Shown: piece after piece, positions 1,022 through 41,508 of the stretch
Layout: each line of letters begins with the position of its first letter
Position numbering within the stretch: the stretch's first letter is position 1
Origin: a virus
Length of the DNA stretch: 64,000 nt
IMG/VR virus record: IMGVR_UViG_3300034072_002191
Coordinates: 16,692-80,691 of that record
Reading direction: 5' to 3' (one strand)
The notes under the pieces: generated by a model
The model's input: the letters and a program-made list of their open reading frames with translations, nothing else
Told to the model about the DNA's origin: nothing
The model's database searches: none
Translations under genes and position numbers: made by a program

Positions 1022-1068
1022 TGAAGCGTGACACGTGAAGCCGGAGTCTTTGACACAACTCCCCGGAG
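1022..1068 (+). repeat. Mu right end (attR): two transposase-binding repeats TGACAC-N7-CGGAG
   Basis: Copies at 1029..1046 and 1051..1068 (22-bp period). The first lies 7 nt in from the terminus, mirroring the site at the other end. Confidence 0.8.
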
Positions 1069-1126
1069 CATTCCAACGTCCGCTTAGAAGCGCCCGAGCC
1101 GCCGTTGAGCAGCTCCATAGCCGCCC

Positions 1127-16617: not shown

Positions 16618-16718
16618 CAATGGAGGTCGGAAGATGTCGGGGGCGCGCGGATGTTGCCATTGCCAGCGCGGGAAATCAAACGTGCCGAGATCGGAAGTCG
16701 ATCCCAGAAGGACCGGCG

Positions 16719-17286: not shown

Positions 17287-18534
17287 TCAGCCCCTCTTCC
17301 CCGTGCGGATCGAGAAGCTCAGCAGCGTCAGCGTCCGGCGCCGGCGCCAGAACTCCCACCGGGTTACGAACTCCTCGCCATCGATCGACGTCGCCAGCTC
17401 GAACACCGGCACCTTGTGCCGATCGGATTGGCCCACATAGCGCGGCGTCGCGTCGGCCACGCGCGGCAGCATGGCGAAGTCGGCCGGCGTCACCGCGCGC
17501 TGCCCGCGCCGGGTCTCGACGGCAGCGTCGCCGTGCTGCGCGCGAATATGCTCCAGCTCCGAGGGCGACAGGGATAGATCGAAGCCGGCGGCGTCGAGCT
17601 TCTCCCGCGCGATCGCGTCGACCTGGTCGCTGGTAAGCAACCCCAGCGTCCGGCCTGGTTCGATGGGCTTGCCCGCCCAGCTCCGCTGCGCATATCGGCG
17701 CAGATCATCCGCCACGCTCGGTAGCGATCGATAGGAGTCCGCCAAGGCGTCGCGCTGCGCCTCCGGTACCGCGTCCATGAACCCCTTCGCGATGCGATAG
17801 TCCCAGCTGCCGATCTTGGAGGCCATGGCTTGCACAGTCGGCGAGGCGGTTGCGCCTGGGGCGTACCCCCAGCCCTTGGAGACGCCGACTTGCGCGCCCG
17901 TCTTTGGATCGGTGCGGTCCCAGCCCGCCGGCAGCCTCTTGGCGGGATCGCCGCCGAGGCGGACCGCTGCGCGCTCGCTACGCGCGCCGGTGACGTAGCA
18001 GGTGCATCCCCAGCCCGAGGGCGGGTAATGCTGGATCCAGAACGCATGGGAAGGCGGCAGGACCAGGCCGTCCCACGAGAGGTGGATGATCCGCGGTTCC
18101 TTGGCGTTGCCGTGCCGGTACACCCAGAAGGCAAAGTCGCCCTCGGTCAGCTGGGCGTGCCGGCCGGCCGCATAGCTGGTTGCCGCATTGGTGCGGTAGA
18201 TCGTCCGCGTACGCCAGGCGCGGCCGGCGGCTGTGTCTTCACCCGTCCAGCCATGCCAGCCGTTCCGCTCGACGATCGACCGGAAGTCGTCGCGAAATGC
18301 GCCCAGGCTCTTTCCCTCGGCGATCGCGCGGTCGACTGCCGCCGCCAGGTCGGAAAGGAGGTCGGCCTTCATGGCACCCGCGACCATGAAGGCATGGTCA
18401 TGCGCCTCGTGCTTCAGGTCATCCCAGCGCCGTGTCGGGACCTGGTTGCCCAGCTTGCGCCGGAAGAACGCGATCTGTTGGCTGAAGGGCTTCCGAAAGG
18501 CACCTGAGAGGCTGCTTGGATGCCCCTCAGGCAC
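17287..18534 (-). CDS. MuF (gp30) minor head protein with C-terminal PBECR-like nuclease domain
   Basis: MuF motifs AF.VAGA, IYRTN..TSY.AGR, HLSWDG, YPPSGWGCTC. C-terminal LEHIRAQHG...GQRAVT.ADF..LP. Confidence 0.85.
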   Translation of the reverse strand: MPEGHPSSLSGAFRKPFSQQIAFFRRKLGNQVPTRRWDDLKHEAHDHAFMVAGAMKADLLSDLAAAVDRAIAEGKSLGAFRDDFRSIVERNGWHGWTGEDTAAGRAWRTRTIYRTNAATSYAAGRHAQLTEGDFAFWVYRHGNAKEPRIIHLSWDGLVLPPSHAFWIQHYPPSGWGCTCYVTGARSERAAVRLGGDPAKRLPAGWDRTDPKTGAQVGVSKGWGYAPGATASPTVQAMASKIGSWDYRIAKGFMDAVPEAQRDALADSYRSLPSVADDLRRYAQRSWAGKPIEPGRTLGLLTSDQVDAIAREKLDAAGFDLSLSPSELEHIRAQHGDAAVETRRGQRAVTPADFAMLPRVADATPRYVGQSDRHKVPVFELATSIDGEEFVTRWEFWRRRRTLTLLSFSIRTGKRG

Positions 18535-27319: not shown

Positions 27320-27726
27320 AGGACGCTCCCCGTGAAGTGCGCGACGACCATGTCGCACAAGGCGAGAAAGGAGGGATCGCGCTGCCGCATGGCCTGCGCC
27401 TTAGCGACGGCATATCCGATGGTGGCGTGATCGCGGTCATCGAACGCCGGCGTGATCTGGCCAGTCGTTTTGCCTGCCCAGCGGTAGGCGAGCCAAATGG
27501 CGGCGAAGCGGGCGCGCACTGCACCTTTGGAGTGCGTCCGGCCGATCATCGCCTCGCGGCTGACGCCGGTCTCGTATGACACGCGGTCGATGATCTGGGA
27601 CACGGTCGGAACCGCGTGGATCACCGTCGTATCCGGCTCGGAGATCGCCGCGCGGATGCGCGCGGCCGTCACTTCGTCTAGCTCGCCCTGGAGCACGACG
27701 AAGCGGACCTTCACCGGCGCGTTCAT
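27316..27726 (-). CDS. Stand-alone DnaA C-terminal (domain IV) HTH protein
   Basis: II..VS...GVS...M.G........RAR..AIWLA.......I...F.DRDH.TI.YAV.K. Confidence 0.85.
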   Translation of the reverse strand: MNAPVKVRFVVLQGELDEVTAARIRAAISEPDTTVIHAVPTVSQIIDRVSYETGVSREAMIGRTHSKGAVRARFAAIWLAYRWAGKTTGQITPAFDDRDHATIGYAVAKAQAMRQRDPSFLALCDMVVAHFTGSVL

Positions 27727-28694
27727 GCTGCCCTCCGGCGTGCATCGCTCGTGCGGCTGTCGATCGCTTGGCGAACATGCCGTTCGTCGAGCACGGATTC
27801 GGTCGCGATCGCCGCCATGTTCGCGCTTTCGAGCACCTGGCGGATTTCGCGGAGGCCGCCATGGGCGGGCGAGAGCCCGATGCCCAACAGCGTGCGGATC
27901 ATGTCCGGATCGTCGATGTTGTTCGCATCGAGGAACGCACGGATGTCCTCTTCGAGCGGCACGTTCTGGATATGGAAATGGGCGATCCGGCTGTTGAGAC
28001 GCGCATAGGCGTGGCGTTTCACGCCGCCCCGGATGCGCTCGACCAGCTCCTCATTGCCCAGCCAGCACACGCCGAGGCCGGTGCTGTCGTGCCAACCGCG
28101 GATCGTCTCCATGGAGTCGAGATCGAGGTGATTGGCCTCATCGACGATCAGCAGCACGCGCCGATGGCGAACGAACTCCTCGACCTGGGCGGACCGCTGG
28201 GCGACCCAGCCATTTGGGCTGGCCAGGCCCATGGCGCGCATCACGCGGGCGATCATGGCGCTGGGCGTGCGGTCGGTCTTGTTCAGCTCGACATAATAGA
28301 CGCTGTCGCCCATCGCGGCCTTGTAATGGAGCGCGGCCTTCGTCTTGCCGGTGCCCGGCCCGAGCGCCGCAGCCGTCATGCGGCCCCCGTGCGCCCATTC
28401 CATCAAGAACAGCAGCCGGTCGGCCGTCTTCGTCTCGATGAAGGAAACTTCGTTGAGGGCCAGTTCGGCGCGCGCCTCCTGGCTCTCGACCAGCTGCTTG
28501 AACGCGAAGATCGCCTTGGCGACATTCTCGCGGTTGCCCTGGAAGCTCGGCGTTGCCCAGGACGAGACGCTGCCCGACGGCTTGTTCATGCGCTTCGCGA
28601 GCGCTGTCCAGCTCAGCGCGTTCTTCTCACGGTAGGCGCGCAGCCATTCGAGCATGTCCTCGAAACTGAGCTTGATGTTTGCAGGGTCGTTCAT
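27723..28694 (-). CDS. MuB-like AAA+ transposition ATPase
   Basis: N-terminal HTH, Walker A GPGTGKT, Walker B LIVDEA, RL.SRI, GGLR. Confidence 0.95.
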   Translation of the reverse strand: MNDPANIKLSFEDMLEWLRAYREKNALSWTALAKRMNKPSGSVSSWATPSFQGNRENVAKAIFAFKQLVESQEARAELALNEVSFIETKTADRLLFLMEWAHGGRMTAAALGPGTGKTKAALHYKAAMGDSVYYVELNKTDRTPSAMIARVMRAMGLASPNGWVAQRSAQVEEFVRHRRVLLIVDEANHLDLDSMETIRGWHDSTGLGVCWLGNEELVERIRGGVKRHAYARLNSRIAHFHIQNVPLEEDIRAFLDANNIDDPDMIRTLLGIGLSPAHGGLREIRQVLESANMAAIATESVLDERHVRQAIDSRTSDARRRAA

Positions 28695-28779: not shown

Positions 28780-30759
28780 TCATCCCTTCACGACGCGGAG
28801 ACGGCGGGCGCCGGCTACCATCTGGTCGAGCGCTGCCCCGCGAGAGGCCTCTGAGACGTTGCTGGGAACCGCCTGAGCGGTGTGCTTGAGAGCTGCCGCC
28901 GTCTGGCCGCGCGAACGGACAGGGCGGATGGCGCCGGGCGATGGCAGCACCTCGACGGGCGTTGTCGCCGCTTGCAGCGCGGCCACCTGGTCGGCTTCGA
29001 GCAGGTCCAGCGCACGCTCCTGGTCCTTGACGGCGCGGCGGTGATCCTTCTCCAGCTTGGCGCGGCGCTTGGCCGCTGCCACGTCGAGAAAGCCGGTCGC
29101 TTCGATCACGGGCGCCGAGCAAAGATAGCGGCCAGTGCGATCGTAGACGTGAAGCGGCGCCAGCAGATCGTCCGGATCGAACCGCACGGTCACCTTGTCA
29201 CCTGCGATGCGGCCGAGCGCCTCGGTCCAGTAGCGGTTGCCGAACAGGTTGATCGCACCGGTCTTGCGATCGGTCGGCCGATCGTCGGCGGTCAGCAGCG
29301 CGAGCCGGCGCTGTTCCTCGGTCGCCTTGCGCACCGGGGACAGCGCATAGCTCTCGGCGAAGACATCGTCGAAGCTCCGGCCCGTATCGCGCGCCATCTC
29401 GGTCCGCCGACCTGGTCGCGAGTTGTGCGCAGCGAACGCGGCCTCAACAACTTCCTTGAAGCGTTCGAGCGGGATAGCCCGCGACCCATAATTCTCCGGC
29501 TTCGCGTCGGGGCGGTTGCCCGTGTAGGCGCCTTCGAAGGCCGGATGCTTGGCGATCGCGTCGCAGAAGTCGCGGAACATGCGCTCGATCGGCTTCGACT
29601 GGCCGCGATAGGGCTTGGCCCAATGCGTCTGCACGCCCAGCTGGGTGAGAATGCCCAGCGGCTCCTCGTCCCGGATCTTGAAGCGGAAGCGGGAGGTGGC
29701 GCCGCCAGTGATCCATTTGCTCGCGAAAGCACGGCCGTTGTCCAGCAGGATGCCGTCTGGAATTCCGTACCGCTCCAGCAGATGGGCGAGCGCCAGGCGC
29801 GTCTCGATTGCGCTCTCGGTCCGCCCGATCGACCATGCCAGGAACTTGCGGCTGAAAATGTCCTGGATGGCCACCATCATCGGGCGCGCGATCGTGCCGT
29901 CTGGCCACTCGACGAACACGTCCCAGCGATGGCCGTCGATGTTCACCAGTTCCATGGCGCGGAGGCCGGCGACGCTGCGCTGCTGCGCCGGTAGCATCCG
30001 CCGCAGCGCTTCATCCCCCTCGCGCCGCGCCACAACGACGCGCGGGTCGACCTCGCGGTCGAACTTCCGGCGCAGCGTCCGCTCGATCGGGAGCGCGATT
30101 CCGCGCGGTTGGCAAAAGTCCCGAAGCACGCGCTGATAGCAGCTTGAAAAGCTCGGCTTGGACGGGCGCAGATAGTCCGAGAGCAGCAACTGCCAGGCGC
30201 CTTCGTCGACCTCCACTTCCTTGCCGCCGCCGCCGCGCCGCCGCGCCAGGTGGGGCAGCCGATCGGCCGCCGGAACACCGGCGACCAGCTCGCGCCACTG
30301 CCACAGCGTGGAGGGCGACTTGCCTTCGCGCTTGCCGATCGCGGCGATCGCGGCCGATGCGGTCATCCCGGCCTGTTCGAGCAGCGAAACCGCGTCCAGG
30401 ATGCGCAGCCGCTCGGCCGCCTCCGCGCGGACATCGTCCGTCTGTCCCTCGAACCAGCGCCATAGCGAGGCGGCGGCCGATTCCGGCTGGGGGCTGGTAT
30501 GCGCTACCGCCGAAACGCCCATGGCGATGATCGCCGACCGAGCCGCGATCGGGAGGACCGAGACGTGGTATTCTAGGCCACCGCCACGGGCGCCCACGCG
30601 CGGCCTGGCGAGCGGCGTGCCGTCGTCAGCCTGGCGCAGCGCCCAGCACTCTTCGACGGCACGCTCGTGGACCTTGCGCTTGGCGCGCGACAGCCCAGGC
30701 AGCGCCAGCTCCGCCAGCTCTGCCGCCGTGAACCACTCTTTTCCCCCACCCAATTTCAC
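28780..30759 (-). CDS. MuA-like DDE transposase
   Basis: Mu HTH N-terminus (WFTAAELA...LPGL), catalytic IDGH / LDNG / KPIER, C-terminal VRFDP. No visible disruption. Confidence 0.97.
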   Translation of the reverse strand: MKLGGGKEWFTAAELAELALPGLSRAKRKVHERAVEECWALRQADDGTPLARPRVGARGGGLEYHVSVLPIAARSAIIAMGVSAVAHTSPQPESAAASLWRWFEGQTDDVRAEAAERLRILDAVSLLEQAGMTASAAIAAIGKREGKSPSTLWQWRELVAGVPAADRLPHLARRRGGGGKEVEVDEGAWQLLLSDYLRPSKPSFSSCYQRVLRDFCQPRGIALPIERTLRRKFDREVDPRVVVARREGDEALRRMLPAQQRSVAGLRAMELVNIDGHRWDVFVEWPDGTIARPMMVAIQDIFSRKFLAWSIGRTESAIETRLALAHLLERYGIPDGILLDNGRAFASKWITGGATSRFRFKIRDEEPLGILTQLGVQTHWAKPYRGQSKPIERMFRDFCDAIAKHPAFEGAYTGNRPDAKPENYGSRAIPLERFKEVVEAAFAAHNSRPGRRTEMARDTGRSFDDVFAESYALSPVRKATEEQRRLALLTADDRPTDRKTGAINLFGNRYWTEALGRIAGDKVTVRFDPDDLLAPLHVYDRTGRYLCSAPVIEATGFLDVAAAKRRAKLEKDHRRAVKDQERALDLLEADQVAALQAATTPVEVLPSPGAIRPVRSRGQTAAALKHTAQAVPSNVSEASRGAALDQMVAGARRLRVVKG

Positions 30760-30761
30760 GT

Positions 30762-31229
30762 TCAGTTCCTCCCGGTGGAGATCACGGGCGCGGCGCCAGC
30801 GAGGGCACGGCGTCGCCGCTTCAGCTCTTCCATTTGTCGGTCGATCTGGCCGAGTTCGGCCGTCAGGATTTCTTCCCCGACCAGCAGTGCGGCGCCGATG
30901 CGCCGGGTCAGCCGGTCGAGCAGGTCATGGCGTTCGGTGACGGCGGTCAGCGCCAGCAGCCGCGCGAACGAAATGGCGTGGTTCTCCCGCGCCTCGGACG
31001 CATAGGCATCCAGCATTGCCTTCGAGACGTCGTCGTCGAGCAGCTCCGAAACCGCGCCGGCGAGCGCGAACCGCGAGCGGGTGTCTTCCTTGAGCATCAC
31101 CGCGACGGTGGCCGCGATCTCGCGGTCCAGACCCGCCAGCGCGGACGCGGTCTTCGCCGGCTGCGGCACCTCGAAGGTGAACGCGAACTGGCCAGGCGGT
31201 ACGGAGGGGCGGCGCTTACCCATTGTCAC
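30762..31229 (-). CDS. Conserved Mu-like early protein upstream of the transposase (HTH/CII-like)
   Basis: SR..LA..VSELL...VSK.MLDAY.S.ARE.H.IS. Confidence 0.75.
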   Translation of the reverse strand: MTMGKRRPSVPPGQFAFTFEVPQPAKTASALAGLDREIAATVAVMLKEDTRSRFALAGAVSELLDDDVSKAMLDAYASEARENHAISFARLLALTAVTERHDLLDRLTRRIGAALLVGEEILTAELGQIDRQMEELKRRRRALAGAAPVISTGRN

Positions 31230-31983
31230 CCTTCAGCCGGCGCCGAAGCGTCTTTTCAGATGGGAGGTTTGGGTAGCGTTCCAGCAGCCACTGATAGGCA
31301 CGGCGGAAGGACGGGTTGCCTGCGCCGCGCAGATAGCCTTGCAGCGCCTCTAGCGCTTCGCTTTCAACATGCGCTCGTTTGCCTCCACCCTTGTATCGCG
31401 GACACAGTTGCTGGGCACGGTCATTGACCCCCAAACCGGCAACACGGCTGAACCAACTGGAGATGCTGCGGCCGGAAACCTTATGGTTGCTCGCGACCAA
31501 ACCGATAGCCGCTCCCTTCGGGATGCCCGTGCTGACCAGTTGTTCGACCTCCGCGAGGATGCCTGCGCGGCGGCGTGCGATGAACTCGAAGGGAGTCGGC
31601 GTCTGCCAAGGGCTGGATCCGCGAACGGCATCCGCGTTGTGCTCGTGCATAATGGCGCGTAGGCACGCATCCCGGTATTTCCGGCTCGCCCAGGGCGGGC
31701 AGCGCGGCACGAGCCCAGCAGCGTAGACTTGGTCGGCGAACGACGGATCGTAGACTTTCAGCAGGTATGAGGTCCGACCGAGCCGAACTGCCTCTACCCA
31801 TTCATGTGCGGGGATCTTCCAAAGAAAGCGCTGGGCGAACTGCTTGCGCTTCTCAGACTCACCAATTCGTTGGTCGAAGTGAGACATTGCGACAGAGCGA
31901 CACCAGCGCAAAGATGCGATCTCGCGCGTCTCTCGCTCGATCATCGCATTTGCGAGGACGATGCTAGATTGGCGACCGCTCAT
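31216..31983 (-). CDS. Protein carrying a copy of the MuA end-binding (I-beta/gamma) domains, no DDE core
   Basis: C-terminal ~120 aa aligns by eye with MuA ~114-243 of this same element. Confidence 0.75.
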   Translation of the reverse strand: MSGRQSSIVLANAMIERETREIASLRWCRSVAMSHFDQRIGESEKRKQFAQRFLWKIPAHEWVEAVRLGRTSYLLKVYDPSFADQVYAAGLVPRCPPWASRKYRDACLRAIMHEHNADAVRGSSPWQTPTPFEFIARRRAGILAEVEQLVSTGIPKGAAIGLVASNHKVSGRSISSWFSRVAGLGVNDRAQQLCPRYKGGGKRAHVESEALEALQGYLRGAGNPSFRRAYQWLLERYPNLPSEKTLRRRLKGDNG

Positions 31984-32252
31984 GCCATTGCTCCTGCGTT
32001 GGCGTCGCGGCCGGCCTCCTCGGCCGCGACTGGGGGCAGTTGGACGTCGCCGGTGGTGCGACCCGAGGCGGCGACAGAGGCGTCCAGGGGGATCGGGTGC
32101 GTGGCAGCGAGCTGCGCCACGGAACGGTGATCAAGAAACGGATAGGAGCCGTCCCGCGCGCGGGCAGGCCGGCCGGCACCTTCCAGGAAGGCGACCAGGC
32201 GCTCGACGCGCGCGGGGGTCAGATCGGTTGGGGCGCCGCGAAGATTGCTCAT
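31980..32252 (-). CDS. Hypothetical early protein
   Basis: 90 aa, ATGA-coupled at both ends. Confidence 0.5.
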   Translation of the reverse strand: MSNLRGAPTDLTPARVERLVAFLEGAGRPARARDGSYPFLDHRSVAQLAATHPIPLDASVAASGRTTGDVQLPPVAAEEAGRDANAGAMA

Positions 32253-32545
32253 GCGTCGGTCCCTTCGTCACGCTCGCCCAGCAGCGCGCAGGTGCGCGCA
32301 TAGGCTTCGGTTGCAGACCGCTCAGCGCGCCGGCCGGCGGCGATGCGGTCGAGAAACTCGGTCTCCGGCGCCGTGACGGCGACCACCCGCCCGCGCAGCG
32401 CTTCGATGCGCTGCTGGCGATCGCGGATGCGGTCCAACGACAGGTTCGTCCGGGCACGTTCCATCGACGTGCGGTCCTGGACGGCACGCTGGAACACGAG
32501 GCGGCACTGCCGCAGGCGCTCGGCCTCGGACACCTGGCGGGCCAT
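32249..32545 (-). CDS. Hypothetical early protein
   Basis: MARQVSEAERLRQCR..., coupled to neighbours. Confidence 0.55.
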   Translation of the reverse strand: MARQVSEAERLRQCRLVFQRAVQDRTSMERARTNLSLDRIRDRQQRIEALRGRVVAVTAPETEFLDRIAAGRRAERSATEAYARTCALLGERDEGTDA

Positions 32546-32997
32546 CACTGCGCACCACCCAGCGGCTGCTGGTGGCTGCAGCCTACGTCGCCGCGAACGC
32601 CGCAACGGGGGCAGGGCTCGCGGGACGCCGCGTAGCGCGGGCCGCCGAGATCGACGACCAGGCCGAGCGCCCCGGCATCGGCGAACCGCCGGCCGCCAAG
32701 CGCTTTCACATAGGCGTCGGACGCGCTCGCGGCGGCCTTTTCCCAAGCATCGGGGAAATAGTCGTGGTTCGCCACGCGCGCGCCGCCAGCGCGGGCGCGG
32801 GCATCGCGGCGCTGGCGATCCTTCTTCCAGGCGTCGATCGCGCCGCGCAGCCGCGCCAGCGTCGTCGGCTTCGGCGAATCGGCCAGCCGCATGCTTTGAA
32901 TGGTCGACATCGGGAAGCCGGTGACGCGGCAGAACTCCGCCAGCTTCGCTTGGTCACGCGCCAGCAGCGCGTCGAGGTGCGACAGCAGCGCGCTCAC
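32545..32997 (-). CDS. Hypothetical protein, N-terminal HTH-like plus C-terminal CPRCG..C.H zinc motif
   Basis: 150 aa, coupled. REPCPRCGVRGDVGCSH. Confidence 0.6.
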   Translation of the reverse strand: MSALLSHLDALLARDQAKLAEFCRVTGFPMSTIQSMRLADSPKPTTLARLRGAIDAWKKDRQRRDARARAGGARVANHDYFPDAWEKAAASASDAYVKALGGRRFADAGALGLVVDLGGPRYAASREPCPRCGVRGDVGCSHQQPLGGAQ

Positions 32998-33515
32998 CGC
33001 CGCGTCTCCGCTTCGTCCTTGGCCTGCCCGAATGCTTCCTGGTACCGGAGCGCATCGTCATGATCTTCGGTCATGCAGGCGATGCGATGGGTCTGCTGCA
33101 GGAGCTGCTGGGTTGCGGGACTGATCTTCGTCCAGTGGTTCCAGCAGAAGGCGTGCCCTCGCCGAACGGGAACATCGCATCCGACCGCCGCGCATGGCGT
33201 CGACCCGCCGCCGCGCGGACGGTGCGCGGGCCTGAGAAGTGCGCCGGGCGTCACGCCGCGCCGGGCCAGTTCGGCGCGCAGCAGCTCGGTATCGACGGTC
33301 AGCAGGTCGACCGTGTCGCCCGCCAGCTCGATCCCGCGATCGCGGTTGGGCAACCGCCGGACCTTGCCGGCGCGTTCGAGCTGATCGACGTAGCGGTGCG
33401 CGTTGGCCTTCGTCGTCTCGAACCGCGCGCCGATCTCCTGATAGGTCGGCGCGAAGCCAGCGCACGTGATGCGGTCGCGGATGAAGTCGAGCACTTCCAC
33501 CTGGCGCGGGGTCAT
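32994..33515 (-). CDS. LexA-type DNA-binding domain fused to a Cys/His zinc-like domain
   Basis: MTPRQ.EVLDFI......GFAPTYQEI......L.R.G...R.....RGIEL, then CAAVGC...FCWNHW. No S24 peptidase. Confidence 0.8.
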   Translation of the reverse strand: MTPRQVEVLDFIRDRITCAGFAPTYQEIGARFETTKANAHRYVDQLERAGKVRRLPNRDRGIELAGDTVDLLTVDTELLRAELARRGVTPGALLRPAHRPRGGGSTPCAAVGCDVPVRRGHAFCWNHWTKISPATQQLLQQTHRIACMTEDHDDALRYQEAFGQAKDEAETRR

Positions 33516-35078: not shown

Positions 35079-35323
35079 CGCCCGCCAGCATTTAGACGAT
35101 GCGGGCGACGACGCTTTTCGCTACCGTCCAACTTCATGGAATCGGCCTCATCCTGGAGAACCTCTTCGATCGCTTCGCGCACGCGGCGGCTCGTTCGCCC
35201 GCGAAAGAGATCGCTCACGCCCGTCTTCGGCAGGCCCTTCGCTTCGATGAAGGCAGCGACAGTCCGGTACCGTTTCCTCAGCACCGCCTTCACGTCCTCC
35301 GGATGGGTCCGGTCCAACATCAT
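35075..35323 (-). CDS. Ner-like (Cro-equivalent) transcriptional regulator
   Basis: HPEDVKA.LRKR..TV.AF....GL. Divergent from the repressor. Confidence 0.8.
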   Translation of the reverse strand: MMLDRTHPEDVKAVLRKRYRTVAAFIEAKGLPKTGVSDLFRGRTSRRVREAIEEVLQDEADSMKLDGSEKRRRPHRLNAGGR

Positions 35324-35410
35324 GGGTCAACCTTCCAACTCTTTGTCCCTATTTGTTGGACCATGCCCCATTATATTGGGCCTGCCAACCCATAATTGTG
35401 GACCTGCCGC
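35324..35410. promoter_or_regulatory. Divergent repressor/ner promoter-operator region
   Basis: AT-richer spacer. 19-bp direct repeats at 35368..35386 and 35390..35408 (15/19 identical) and a partial copy at 35356..35367. Confidence 0.7.
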
Positions 35411-36115
35411 ATGATCGAGGGTGCGCCGCAGCGATTGCGCGAGGAGAGGGAGCGCCTTGGGCTGAACCAGCGAGATGCGGCAGCACTCGGATCAGTCAGC
35501 AAAAACACACAGTTAGCTTATGAGAGTGGGTCCTCTCCGATTCCGCTTAGCTATCTGGGTCTGATCGGCCTGAAGGGATTCGACGTCAGCTACATCGTCC
35601 TTGGCGTGCCGGCGGCAGATAGCCCGCGCCGACAGCTGCACGACGAAATGAGGGCTTCATTGGCGCGGTCAACAGCGCCGGCTACGGCTGCGCCGCGTGC
35701 CGATGATCTTGATTTGGTTGAGGTCCACGAAATTGACCTCGCCTATGGTCTGGGCGGCACCTTTTCCGATTTGCCGGTAGAAACCCAGGTGCTTCATTTC
35801 CCCCGGACCTGGCTTGAGACAATTACGAAGACGCCGCCTTCGCAGCTGACCTTTGCGCATGGCCGGGGCGACTCCATGATGCCAACCATGATGGATGGCG
35901 ACATTGTGCTCATCGACCGCTCACAGCGCACCGTACGAGAACAGGACGCAATATGGGCGTTCACAGTCGGAGACATCGCAATGATCAAGCGACTTCGTAT
36001 CCGCAGCGAAACGGTTCACATTCTGTCCGACAATGATCGGGTTCCGCCCGACGAAGCGCATCCCGAAGAGGTTAACGTCGTCGGGCGTGTAGTTTTCATT
36101 GGCCGCCGGATCTGA
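35411..36115 (+). CDS. Prophage repressor, XRE HTH plus S24 peptidase (CI/LexA type)
   Basis: RLREERERLGLNQ...YE.G, GDSM.PT..DGD.VLID, IKRL. Confidence 0.92.
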   Translation: MIEGAPQRLREERERLGLNQRDAAALGSVSKNTQLAYESGSSPIPLSYLGLIGLKGFDVSYIVLGVPAADSPRRQLHDEMRASLARSTAPATAAPRADDLDLVEVHEIDLAYGLGGTFSDLPVETQVLHFPRTWLETITKTPPSQLTFAHGRGDSMMPTMMDGDIVLIDRSQRTVREQDAIWAFTVGDIAMIKRLRIRSETVHILSDNDRVPPDEAHPEEVNVVGRVVFIGRRI

Positions 36116-36928: not shown

Positions 36929-37019
36929 GGGTCCCACTTCAGCGAATCCGCATATGTTGGAAGGCATCACCGAAAGTGGCAGATTTCCGTGATTTCTGCG
37001 CCTCAGACAGCAAAGACGC

Positions 37020-37047
37020 AAAGTGGGACCCGTTGAGGTCCCACTTT
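37020..37047. repeat. Perfect 11-bp inverted repeat near the Mu left end
   Basis: AAAGTGGGACC-CGTTGA-GGTCCCACTTT. Extra half-site at 36929..36939. Confidence 0.7.
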
Positions 37048-37318
37048 CGCGCTCGCGTAAATTGTTGCGGCGTGAGAGAATTGCCCTCAGACACTCCTAA
37101 GAGGACGCATTTCCGCGTCTTAGAGGCCCTTGAGAGGCTGTTCAGCCGCCGGTCGCCGACTCTGACACATCCTGTCAAAGGGCTGTCTATTTCACGCGTG
37201 CGTTTTGACAACGTCGCTCCCACCGATGCGCGCTAGCCCCTGTTGCAAACCCACGGATTTCCGCCATTTGTCCGCGAAAGATCGGGTAAGCGGGGCTAAT
37301 CCCGGAATTCAACCTTCA

Positions 37319-37343
37319 CTCCAGCAGCAAGTGTCAACTCTCA
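37319..37343 (-). repeat. Mu left end (attL) with transposase-binding repeat
   Basis: - strand TGAGAGT-TGACAC-TTGCTGC-TGGAG. Degenerate copy at 37160..37177. Confidence 0.8.
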
Positions 37344-37348
37344 TCGGG
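37344..37348 (+). repeat. 5-bp target-site duplication TCGGG (right copy)
   Basis: Follows the terminal CA. Identical to 1017..1021. Confidence 0.9.
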
Positions 37349-38468: not shown

Positions 38469-40184
38469 GTGCTCACCTGGTCGACGGCGTGCCCGGACTG
38501 GAAGCGCCGGATCAAAGAGCGCCGGTCGTTGATCCCGTTTTCTCCGCTGTTTCCTGCCTCCGCAGAGGCGAAGATGGCGGTGTTCACGTCGCTCAAGATC
38601 GTCGACCTCGGGTACAACCCGGCAACCAACGATTATTGGACGATCGGCGAGAGCGCGGACGAGTGGCTGCTCGACTTCGTCGCCGCGATCTTCGGCGCAT
38701 ACGATCCCGAGACCGGGCAGCAGATGATCCGCGAGGGCTTCCTGCTGGTCTCGAAGAAGAACACGAAATCGACGATCGCCGCCGGCATCATGCTCACCGA
38801 GTTGATCTGCGGCTGGCGACCCTCGGACGAAAACCTGATCCTGGCGCCGACGATCGAGGTCGCCGGCAACAGCTTCAAGCCCGCGATGGATATGATCCGG
38901 GCAGACGACGAGCTCGACGCGCTTCTGCATCCGCAGGAGCACATCCGGACCATCACGAACCGGAACAACAAATCGACGCTCAAGGTGGTTGCTGCCGACA
39001 GCGCGACGGTGTCGGGCAAGAAGGCAAGCCGGGTGCTGATCGACGAGCTTTGGCTGTTCGGGAAGAAGGCCACCGCCGACGCGATGTTCCGCGAGGCGAC
39101 GGGCGGCCAGGTGGCGCGCCCGGAGGGGTACACGCTCTACCTGACGACACAGTCGGACGAGCCGCCGGCGGGGGTGTTCAAGGACAAGCTGGCCTATGCG
39201 CGCGATGTGCGCGACGGCCTGGTGCAGGACAACGAATTTCTCCCGGTGCTCTACGAGTTTCCGGAGGAGATGATCGAGGCGAAGGAGCACCTGCTCCCCG
39301 CCAATTTTTACATCACCAACCCCAACCTGGGGCGTTCGGTCAGCCAGAAGTGGCTGGAGAGCCAGTTTCAGAAGGTCGAGAACGCCGAGGACGGCACCAA
39401 GCAGGTCTTCTATGCGAAGCACCTCAACGTCGAGATCGGAGTCGGCCTTCGGCATGATGCCTGGGCGGGGGCCCTCTATTGGGAGGCGGCGGCGGCGCCG
39501 CCGGAGATCTGGGACGGCTCGCTCGAGCATTTCGTCGCCATCTGCGAGGTGGCTGTGGCCGGCATAGACGGTGGAGGTCTCGACGACTTGCTCGGCCTGA
39601 CGTTGCTCGGCCGCCACCGGCAGACCAAGGCCTGGCTTAGCTGGTCGCATGCCTGGGCCCAGCTCGACGTGTTCGAGCGCCGCAAGGATATCGTCAGCCG
39701 GCTGCAGGACTTCATCGCCGAGGGATCGCTGACGAAGTGCGAGGACCCGACGCAGGATCTGGTCGAGCTAGCGAACATCCTGGAGCAGGTAAAGGATGCT
39801 GGGCTGTTCCCGGAGGAGTACGCGATCGGGCTCGACCCGGCTGGCGTGGCCGCGATCGTCGACGAGCTTATAGGGCGAGGCTTCACCGAAAAGCAGCTGC
39901 TCGCGATCTCGCAGGGCTTCCGCCTGTCGGCTGCGGTCTGGGGATCGGAGCGCAAGCTCAAGGACGGCACGCTGCTCCACGCCGTGCAGGAGCTGATGAA
40001 CTGGTGTGTCGGCAACGCGAAGGCTGAGCAGCGCGGGAACGCGGTGCTGATCACCAAGCAGGTCGCCGGCAAGGCCAAGATCGACCCGCTGATCGCCCTG
40101 TTCAACGCCGTCATGCTGATGGCTCGCAATCCGGCGGCGGTGCCGCCGTCCGTCTACACGCGCCGCGGCATCATTCGGGTCTGA
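38469..40184 (+). CDS. Terminase large subunit
   Basis: [38 protein letters not shown]. Confidence 0.95.
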
Positions 40185-40194
40185 AGGAGGGCGT

Positions 40195-41508
40195 ATGGGA
40201 GGCATGTCGCCCGACGATTATCGCCGCGCGGCCGGCTATCGCCGGTCCGAGGCGCAACGGGCGCCGGTGATGGTTGCTCGCACGGGTCCGGTCAGCGCAG
40301 CCCAGGTCATGACCTTCGAAAGCCCCGAGCTGGTCGACTTTCTTCGCGGCGGTGCACCGTCGGCCAGCGGCACGCACGTCGACGAGCTGATGTCGCTGCG
40401 GAACAGCACATTCTTCCGCGCGGTGAACCTGATCGCCGCCTCGATCGGCATGCTGCCCACCTTTCTCATGCGTCGCACGGTCGACGCGCAGGGGCAGGAG
40501 CACATCCAGAAGGCCAAGGATCACCCGCTCTATCGGGTGCTGCACAAGCGGCCCAACACCTATCAGACGGCTTTCGAGTTCAAGAGCCACATGCAGCAGC
40601 TCGCGCTGCGCCATGGCAACGCCTATGCACTCATCATCCGGGGCCTGCGGGGGAAGGTGGTGCAGCTGGTGCCGCTGCCGCGCGGCGCCGTAACCCCAAA
40701 GCTCTCCAGCGACTGGGTGCTGACCTTCGAATATCGCCGCCCGACTGGTGGAACGGTGACCCTTCCGGCGAGCGACGTCTTCCACTTTCGCCACCCAATC
40801 ACGCGCGACGGCCTGACCGGCGTCAGCCTCGTCGACATGGCTCGCAATTCCATCGGGATCGCGGCCGATGCCGAGAAGGCGGCCGGCAAGCTGCTGAACG
40901 GCGGCGTCATGGCGGGCGGGGCGCTGGAAACCGACAAAGGCCTGGGGGACGAGGCGATCGATCGCCTGAAGGCGAGCATGGCCGAGGACTATACGGGCAC
41001 CGACAACGCCGGAACCTGGATGATCCTCGAAGAGGGCATGAAGGCCAAGCCGTTCATCGCCAGCGCGCGGGATGCCCAATACGACGAGCTGCGGAAGCGA
41101 CAGGCGGAGGAGGTATCACGCTTCACCGGCGTGCCGCGCCCGCTTCTTATGTTCGACGAGACCAGCTGGGGCAGTGGCATCGAGCAGCTGGGGCTGTTCT
41201 TCGTGACCTACTGCCTCATGCCGTGGTTCATCGCCTGGGAGCAGGCAATCGAGCGCTCGTGCTTCACCGATGCCGAGCAAGATGCCGAAGAGCTCTACGT
41301 CAAGTTCAACGAGGGCGCGCTGCTGCGCGGCTCGCTCAAGGATCAGGCCGAGTTCTTCAAGGCAGCCCTGGGCCCGAACCAAGCCTATCGCTCGGTCAAT
41401 GAGGTGCGGAGCGCCTTCGATCTCAACCCAAAGACAGGCGACGAGACCGGGCCCGACGCAATTCCGCAGCCAATCGCCGCCCCGCAACCGCAAGGGACCA
41501 CCAAATGA
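40195..41508 (+). CDS. Portal protein, HK97 family
   Basis: DHPLY.VL..RPN, GNAYA, GVS, ILEEGM, F.GVP, SGIEQ, LLRG, NEVR. Confidence 0.95.
   Translation: MGGMSPDDYRRAAGYRRSEAQRAPVMVARTGPVSAAQVMTFESPELVDFLRGGAPSASGTHVDELMSLRNSTFFRAVNLIAASIGMLPTFLMRRTVDAQGQEHIQKAKDHPLYRVLHKRPNTYQTAFEFKSHMQQLALRHGNAYALIIRGLRGKVVQLVPLPRGAVTPKLSSDWVLTFEYRRPTGGTVTLPASDVFHFRHPITRDGLTGVSLVDMARNSIGIAADAEKAAGKLLNGGVMAGGALETDKGLGDEAIDRLKASMAEDYTGTDNAGTWMILEEGMKAKPFIASARDAQYDELRKRQAEEVSRFTGVPRPLLMFDETSWGSGIEQLGLFFVTYCLMPWFIAWEQAIERSCFTDAEQDAEELYVKFNEGALLRGSLKDQAEFFKAALGPNQAYRSVNEVRSAFDLNPKTGDETGPDAIPQPIAAPQPQGTTK

Follow-up and report, generated by a model that had tools for sequence, protein, structure and literature searches.

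Why should a Mu-like phage carry, beside its transposase gene, a second gene that holds the end-binding part of a transposase and none of its catalytic part? The question is raised by a locus in a 64,000-nucleotide stretch of the IMG/VR virus record IMGVR_UViG_3300034072_002191 (positions 16,692 to 80,691 of that record; hereafter the window). The minus strand of the window holds a Mu-like prophage that spans 1022-37343 (36,322 bp; 36.3 kb). In its early operon, ahead of the MuA gene as the original prediction had placed it, lies an open reading frame (ORF) of 255 amino acids (aa), here called the chimeric gene, in which an N-terminal domain foreign to transposases (the N-domain) is joined to a module resembling the I-beta and I-gamma subdomains of Mu transposase (Table 1). 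Our tentative answer is that its product may be a dimeric DNA binder at Mu-type end repeats and a non-catalytic competitor of a transposase.

The C-terminal half aligns collinearly with the resident MuA (BLASTP, ORF residues 136-250 with MuA residues 114-233; 42 of 121 positions identical, 35%, E 1e-11), and the MuA-like motifs quoted in the original prediction are those found in this alignment. PHROG 310 ("transposase") matches residues 135-251 (E 1.2e-10), and an exhaustive phmmer search matched residues 128-253 to more than 20 full-length MuA-type proteins of ~650 aa; phmmer against PDB sequences gave a chance match only. AlphaFold2, run with a 62-row alignment, modelled residues 130-253 at pLDDT 90-98. 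The best fold match of the model was the Mu transpososome chain 4fcy_B (VIA-align, Z 9.4, 121 residues aligned, model residues 126-255 onto MuA 97-233), and Foldseek likewise returned 4fcy (E 8e-4, probability 1.00). In the model and its fold matches, the two helix-turn-helix (HTH) subdomains follow the order I-beta, basic linker, I-gamma, as in Mu transposase. Most residues conserved among MuA proteins are present, among them R139, G153, A159, W177, G183, D188, L193, P195 and GG199-200, and further along P224, Y230, P241, T245 and R248-249. In Mu, I-beta and I-gamma recognise the 22-bp MuA sites at the ends of the phage (PMC3362531). The chimeric protein stops at residue 255, right after the I-gamma recognition helix, and the absence of a DDE core, noted before from the letters alone, was borne out by the Pfam scan, in which no family reached E 0.1 on the ORF and neither the DDE core (PF02914/rve), nor domain III, nor I-alpha (PF02316) gave a match.

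The other half of the protein, ~125-130 aa, had been described as unrelated to MuA, and BLASTP and phmmer agree. Its structure model consists of one long helix (residues 3-54), a small helical core and a loop. Modelled as a homodimer, residues 1-130 scored 0.66, whereas the best of three controls scored 0.00; among proteins of solved structure, 20 of 30 one-chain pairs and 1 of 23 single chains attained this score. The dimer runs agreed in 100% of contacts, with pLDDT of at least 87 and an antiparallel interface formed by residues 7-54. These models support, without proving, that the N-domain dimerises.

Taken together with the C-terminal half, a dimeric, sequence-specific binder of this kind would recognise the bipartite 22-bp end repeats of Mu type, or similar sites. 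With I-alpha and domains II and III missing, the protein would lack the parts for synapsis and catalysis; it would occupy or bridge such sites non-productively and so compete with a transposase. The logic would be that of Mu repressor c, or of IS1 InsA and the P-element KP protein, transferred to Mu-type end sites. As preferred targets, accessory sites or the ends of other Mu-like elements would be likelier than the resident sites R1, R2 and L1.

The original prediction had called the module a copy of the transposase domains. The type of module was named correctly, whereas a duplicate of the resident MuA is contradicted by the 35% identity, by the phylogeny and by codon composition. In a tree built from I-beta/gamma segments, the ORF groups with its two homologues in a clade of their own (support 99) on a stem branch of 1.33 changes per site, and the resident MuA is placed in another supported clade. 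The lower GC noted before also held: the chimeric gene has a GC of 0.609 and a GC at third codon positions (GC3) of 0.68, against GC3 values of 0.83 in MuA, 0.85 in the downstream cII-like gene and 0.76 in the upstream orf90. A recent duplication of the resident MuA was rejected on these grounds. Because of the separate clade on a long stem and the different codon composition, sequence comparison indicates that the module is a distant paralogue acquired from elsewhere and not duplicated in place. The claim that the recognition residues differ stood for one helix of two. In the I-beta recognition helix, about 5 of 15 positions are identical between the ORF (SGRSISSWFSRVAG) and the resident MuA (SPSTLWQWRELVAG); the I-gamma helix (PSEKTLRRR in the ORF, PIERTLRRK in MuA) and the basic linker follow the family consensus.

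The fusion of N-domain and I-beta/I-gamma module is very rare. A search of 5.8 billion proteins yielded three clusters, with only two full-length homologues, P0002 and P0003. P0002 has the same length and is 89% identical, with 28 mostly conservative changes and no insertions or deletions. P0003 is 54% identical and has no frame breaks; its identity is 71% in the N-terminal helix, 71% in the N-domain core, 18% in the inter-domain linker, 50% in I-beta and 27% in I-gamma, and this unevenness across domains points to selection on the protein, and so speaks against a dead fragment. All three proteins end in ...NG-stop, an ending that in the window is made by the downstream gene's ATGGGTAA, and this hints that all three occupy the same slot. 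In the same protein set, phmmer found no N-domain fused to a full-length transposase. Scans with the ORF as query found no relatives in genome contigs or viral contigs. A tblastn check of its distribution in 50,697 phage records recovered the transposase of Rhodovulum phage vB_RhkS_P1 as the only match, and not the fusion, and a search of 401 alphaproteobacterial genomes gave C-terminal matches only within open frames of 650-843 aa, and no copy of the fusion.

Such rarity would suit a non-functional remnant, that is, an accidental fusion with a transposase fragment, kept open by coupling to the translation of the downstream cII-like and MuA genes. The I-gamma half of P0003 decays while the frame still reaches its ...NG-stop, and truncated MuA fragments are known: P0020, in Rhodovulum sp. 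P5, is a clear remnant that clusters at 90% identity or more with the vB_RhkS_P1 transposase in the same genome. The substitution pattern of P0002 argues otherwise, as do the domain-specific conservation of the N-domain, the very high confidence of the fold prediction, the strong Shine-Dalgarno sequence, and a composition that speaks for acquisition as a unit and not for decay in situ of a resident gene; we regard a remnant as highly improbable. The original prediction had named a decaying fragment as its refutation. With two full-length homologues, an in-frame fusion to a conserved family and a good ribosome-binding site, the gene is a real one and is unlikely to be a fragment of this sort. 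A contig-end artefact was ruled out, since the gene lies inside a long record.

Other short proteins also turned up. P0014, P0029, P0030, P0045 and P0055, of ~230-242 aa, contain I-alpha, I-beta and I-gamma and stop near the boundary between domains I and II. Some of them are probably fragments, since the P0030 cluster includes a 461-aa member; their shared end point could also mark natural products consisting of domain I only.

The pattern of conservation raises a different possibility, namely that the N-domain is a working effector or a part that binds a host or phage factor, and that I-beta/gamma merely localises it on DNA, at ends or elsewhere. Residues ~40-111 belong to a small family in its own right (phmmer, profile search), which comprises only ~12 clusters among 5.8 billion proteins and has members of 106-324 aa, whose invariant core reads IPxHEW and then CPPW-x2-R-x-Y, commonly PRCPPWASRKYR in its members. 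No part of the family is better conserved in P0003 than the N-domain core, 14 N-domain residues are invariant across 12-14 proteins, and sphingomonad phage-like elements contain the N-domain by itself or joined to other C-termini. No catalytic motif, fold or family could be recognised in it, however. Pfam, PHROG, NCBIfam and PADLOC hold no relative, and a profile search of PDB was empty; scores against the ESM Atlas were at most 0.80, in the chance range. The Foldseek comparison put forward in the original prediction gave no clear relative, all BFVD matches having E of 2 or more, and VIA-align matched the long helix only, to generic coiled coils (Z up to 6.2). The feature predicted with confidence is the dimerising helix, which may be the whole role of the domain, and we consider this tethering role distinctly unlikely.

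An alignment of the N-domain gave no match in viral contigs; genome and metagenome contigs gave relatives that consist of the N-domain only. At the two loci that could be read, both in sphingomonad phage-like elements, the N-domain gene lies upstream of Mor-like genes and of the Mu-type protease/scaffold gene I. These compact, phage-like elements (L003:6800-17300, in Sphingobium ummariense RL-3, and L036:1-10500) carry a cI-like repressor, a Bro-N gene, two Mor-like genes, protease/scaffold I, a tail chaperone and a tape measure gene. The N-domain protein there goes by the NCBI name "lysozyme family protein" and has a weak PG_binding_3 match. No transposase or terminase was seen in the stretches of L003 and L036 that were read, and these elements may be defective prophages, satellites or elements resembling gene transfer agents.

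The position of the chimeric gene was described correctly in the main. Translational coupling is supported by an ATGA overlap with orf90, the AGGAG 7 nt before the ATG, and a stop codon within the first codons of the next gene. The gene had been placed two genes ahead of MuA; in fact just one, the cII-like gene, lies between them. This cII-like gene probably starts at ATG 31223 (MGKRRP) rather than at GTG 31229, because the breakpoint of the cassette described below sits exactly there and because the homologue in a more distant IMG/VR relative (L039) begins with MGKRRP.

Contigs from public runs were aligned to window positions 30000-33000 to locate the joints of the cassette that carries the chimeric gene. 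A 3,265-nt contig from a freshwater metagenome and a 771-nt contig from an isolate, from two studies (runs X3 and X4), both join 31223 to 32004 with 226 other letters between, and their flanks are 97-99% identical to the window. The borders of the cassette are the gene's own borders, ~20 nt before its ATG and at the ATG of the cII-like gene, and the upstream breakpoint leaves no room in the cassette for a promoter of its own. Thus, close sister prophages lack the chimeric gene and hold a short alternative segment instead. Since these sisters and other relatives lack the gene in this slot, it is dispensable for the basic phage cycle. The slot ahead of the cII-like gene seems to be a hotspot at which accessory genes vary. 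In L039 (cII-like protein 77% and MuA 57% identical) it holds a different, Cys-rich ORF of ~94 aa (L039:5710-5994), and the gene list of phage vB_CibM-P1, which has the same early-region layout, includes no such gene (PMC4236739). A scan of 30500-33200 for sigma-70 promoters and terminators found no sites, which is weak evidence in a genome of 67% GC.

The prophage itself is intact and mobile, as seen from its end repeats and from the target duplication TCGGG. A 5-bp duplication is the Mu-type target duplication, and its presence outside both termini shows that the prophage arrived by transposition. Sites of the form TGACAC-N7-CGGAG with up to 2 mismatches show no overall enrichment (22 found, 25 expected), and only exact or one-mismatch sites at the two prophage termini were counted as meaningful.

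A dimer might also assist its own phage, by bridging the left and right ends or accessory sites and so aiding synapsis or protecting the ends. In the model, the antiparallel dimer sets the two DNA-binding halves at opposite tips of a rod of ~7 nm; operon position and coupling indicate co-expression with MuA and MuB, and the target duplication records that the carrier prophage transposed successfully. Yet the sister phages manage without the gene, the protein and the resident MuA have diverged in the I-beta recognition helix, and a bridging factor of this kind is not known to have a precedent; we judge a positive accessory role very unlikely.

The module is also found by itself. Standalone I-beta/gamma proteins of 150-175 aa, named "DNA-binding domain-containing protein", occur in Sphingomonas (e.g., WP_454887856.1 and WP_260171405.1). 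One standalone protein of 173 aa (L035:9586-10185, genome G449) is encoded inside an integrative conjugative element with a relaxase, a type IV secretion system coupling protein, DUF2840, SLT and a RovC-like gene; the adjoining DndB-like and TGT-like genes may form a DNA-modification system.

Standalone proteins of this kind, one of them in a conjugative element with no Mu transposase nearby, bear on a further explanation, that the chimeric protein is a domesticated module, an ordinary early transcription regulator at phage or host promoters or operators with no role at ends. A dimerisation helix plus a DNA-binding domain is an architecture typical of regulators, the operon neighbours are regulators themselves (LexA-type HTH, cII-like, ner-like), and the long stem branch indicates altered constraints on the module. 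On the other hand, repeat searches near the ends found operator-like motifs but none assignable to the chimeric protein as a candidate operator, the I-gamma helix and the basic linker stay near the MuA consensus, and the gene sits within the transposition operon beside MuA and MuB. We consider such a regulator unlikely, if the strongest of the alternatives.

Returning to the competitor of a transposase, the diverged I-beta helix, the dispensable cassette and an intact prophage with its target duplication fit action on competitor ends, or a tether, better than action on the phage's own ends. Foreign ends or accessory sites would be likelier targets than resident ends because the I-beta helix has diverged, the cassette is dispensable and the carrier phage has transposed. 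A bolder version, which we think unlikely, is a mobile dimeric "anti-transposase" made in the lytic cycle, which, within a shared cell, would jam or cross-link the end repeats of rival Mu-like phages or elements and spare its own.

Several results weigh against competition at transposon ends. In P0003, the I-gamma half is degenerate (15 of 55 positions identical, 16 gaps, recognition helix deleted), and the conserved function of the family may therefore sit in the N-domain, or in the N-domain plus I-beta, and not in bipartite end binding. The Pfam check proposed in the original prediction failed for I-gamma, as the model PF09039 (HTH_Tnp_Mu_2) did not reach E 0.1 on the ORF; it does match the standalone relative L035 (E 5.9e-10), and the chimeric ORF is missed because its module has diverged too far for the model. 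Because standalone forms occur outside Mu prophages, the module can serve as a general DNA binder. Finally, the chimeric gene is predicted to share the early-operon transcript with MuA, with no promoter of its own detected, and with expression from this operon only, the protein would be absent from a repressed lysogen and so could not exclude incoming phages there.

Table 1. Coordinates of the chimeric gene, its parts and related features of the Mu-like prophage (window positions).
Feature	Position	Strand	Remarks
Chimeric gene, N-domain plus I-beta/I-gamma module	31216-31983	-	open frame, 255 aa
Long helix, residues 3-54	31822-31977	-	structure model; modelled as antiparallel homodimeric coiled coil
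Conserved N-domain core, residues 57-105	31669-31815	-	invariant I57 P58 H60 E61 W62 A65 L74 Y78 C95 P96 W98 R101 Y103
I-beta-like subdomain plus basic linker PRYKGGGK, residues 126-201	31381-31608	-	fold match 2ezl, Z 7.8, onto MuA 97-174
I-gamma-like subdomain, residues 202-255	31219-31380	-	ends with recognition helix PSEKTLRRRL; fold match 2ezi, Z 6.1, root-mean-square deviation 2.6, onto MuA 176-233
Shine-Dalgarno sequence AGGAG	31991-31995	-	7 nt before ATG of chimeric gene
Swapped cassette, 780 nt	31224-32003		sister prophages hold 226 other bases here
Upstream coupled gene orf90	31980-32252	-	no known family; last 7 codons fall inside cassette
Downstream coupled gene, cII-like regulator	30762-31223	-	PHROG match (phrog_2345)
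Resident MuA transposase	28780-30759	-	659 aa; Pfam DDE_2, HTH_Tnp_Mu_2, Mu-transpos_C, HTH_Tnp_Mu_1 (I-alpha, I-gamma, catalytic parts)
MuB-like AAA+ transposition protein	27723-28694	-	library match
Prophage repressor, HTH plus Peptidase_S24	35396-36115	+	divergent from early operon
Right end of prophage	1022-1072	+	terminus TGAAGCG, then two contiguous 22-bp sites TGACAC-N7-CGGAG (1029-1050, 1051-1072)
Left end of prophage	37315-37343	-	terminus TGAGAGT, then site L1 at 37336-37315 (TGACAC-N7-TGGAG)
Target-site duplication	1017-1021 and 37344-37348	+ (1017-1021)	5 bp TCGGG, identical outside both termini

Other early genes of the prophage include ParB-like, LexA-HTH, ner-like and cII-like ones, and the prophage also encodes a Mu-type portal, MuF, a DnaA_C-like HTH gene and a gp16/GemA-like gene. 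The MuF-like protein (17287-18534) has a weak C-terminal match to the nuclease-like PBECR3 (E 5e-4), under the Pfam cut-off. Operator-like repeats GGTCC(A/C)AC form an inverted pair at 35311-35362, between the repressor and the early operon, and recur in three copies near the left end (36929-37047), one of which is a perfect 11-nt palindrome pair; they may serve as repressor or enhancer sites. The end repeat also occurs in a palindromic form, TGACAGGATGTGTCA, at 37160-37180, ~160 bp inward of the left end, and this may be an L2 site or one for a dimeric binder. The Mu-like prophage is directly followed by the packaging module of a second, unrelated prophage, which consists of an HNH-like ORF (37429), a small-terminase-like ORF (37907), TerL (38469-40184) and a portal (40195-41508). 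One phage is inserted within or beside another inside a single IMG/VR provirus record of 80.7 kb.

Among known systems, MuA itself (I-beta, aa 77-168, PDB 2EZK/2EZL; I-gamma, aa 178-242, PDB 2EZH/2EZI; 4FCY) has the same two subdomains in the same order on a basic Gly-rich linker, and the roles of its domains have been described (PMC3362531). Unlike MuA, the chimeric protein lacks the enhancer-binding domain I-alpha, the DDE core (II) and domain III, which interacts with MuB and ClpX, and has an unrelated N-terminal domain. Mu repressor c (PDB 1G4D/1QPM) consists of an I-alpha paralogue and an oligomerisation region. Both c and, by prediction, the chimeric protein are phage-encoded and non-catalytic, and combine a transposase-type DNA-binding domain with an oligomerisation element to bind sites that the transposase uses too. 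They differ in that c shares I-alpha, which acts at operator/enhancer sites, whereas the chimeric ORF shares I-beta/gamma, which act at end sites; the domain order is reversed, the prophage repressor is here a separate S24/HTH protein, and the chimeric ORF has no PF02316 domain.

Partial transposases without catalysis that modulate or inhibit transposition include IS1 InsA, IS3-family OrfA, Tn5 Inh and the P-element KP and 66-kDa proteins, of which InsA, OrfA and KP keep the end-binding domain of their transposase. These inhibitors come from the transposase gene itself, through frameshifting, an alternative start or splicing, so that their DNA specificity is identical. In contrast to InsA, OrfA and KP, the chimeric gene is a separate gene, acquired horizontally, with a diverged domain (35% identical to the resident MuA) and an added foreign N-terminus. 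The standalone Sphingomonas proteins likewise lack the catalytic core, and are 36-43% identical to the C-terminal half of the ORF, but they have no N-domain and the tree places them apart from the ORF, and the one locus examined is a conjugative element. CENP-B, the Pax paired domain, Tc3/Mos1 and TnsB, which also have two HTH subdomains on one linker, gave weaker structural matches (Z ~5-6) and are distant relatives. CENP-B offers a precedent for a transposase DNA-binding module retained without catalysis (PMC3362531). Literature searches, like the original prediction, brought up no described equivalent in Mu-like phages; other transposons and the Mu repressor provide known cases of the principle.

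Transposable phages are a model for DDE transposition, and the regulation known for them involves the repressor/enhancer (I-alpha) axis together with MuB and host factors. The cassette-plus and cassette-minus sister prophages provide a natural control that makes the question directly testable, and the N-domain constitutes an undescribed small family worth structural and functional work. If the proposed function is true, a mobile gene with the end-recognition module alone would bring in a further layer of regulation or competition, exerted directly at the transposon ends, and would be a natural case of domestication of transposase domains inside a phage. If, in addition, the protein acts as an anti-transposase, it would represent a class of inter-phage competition factor not yet described.

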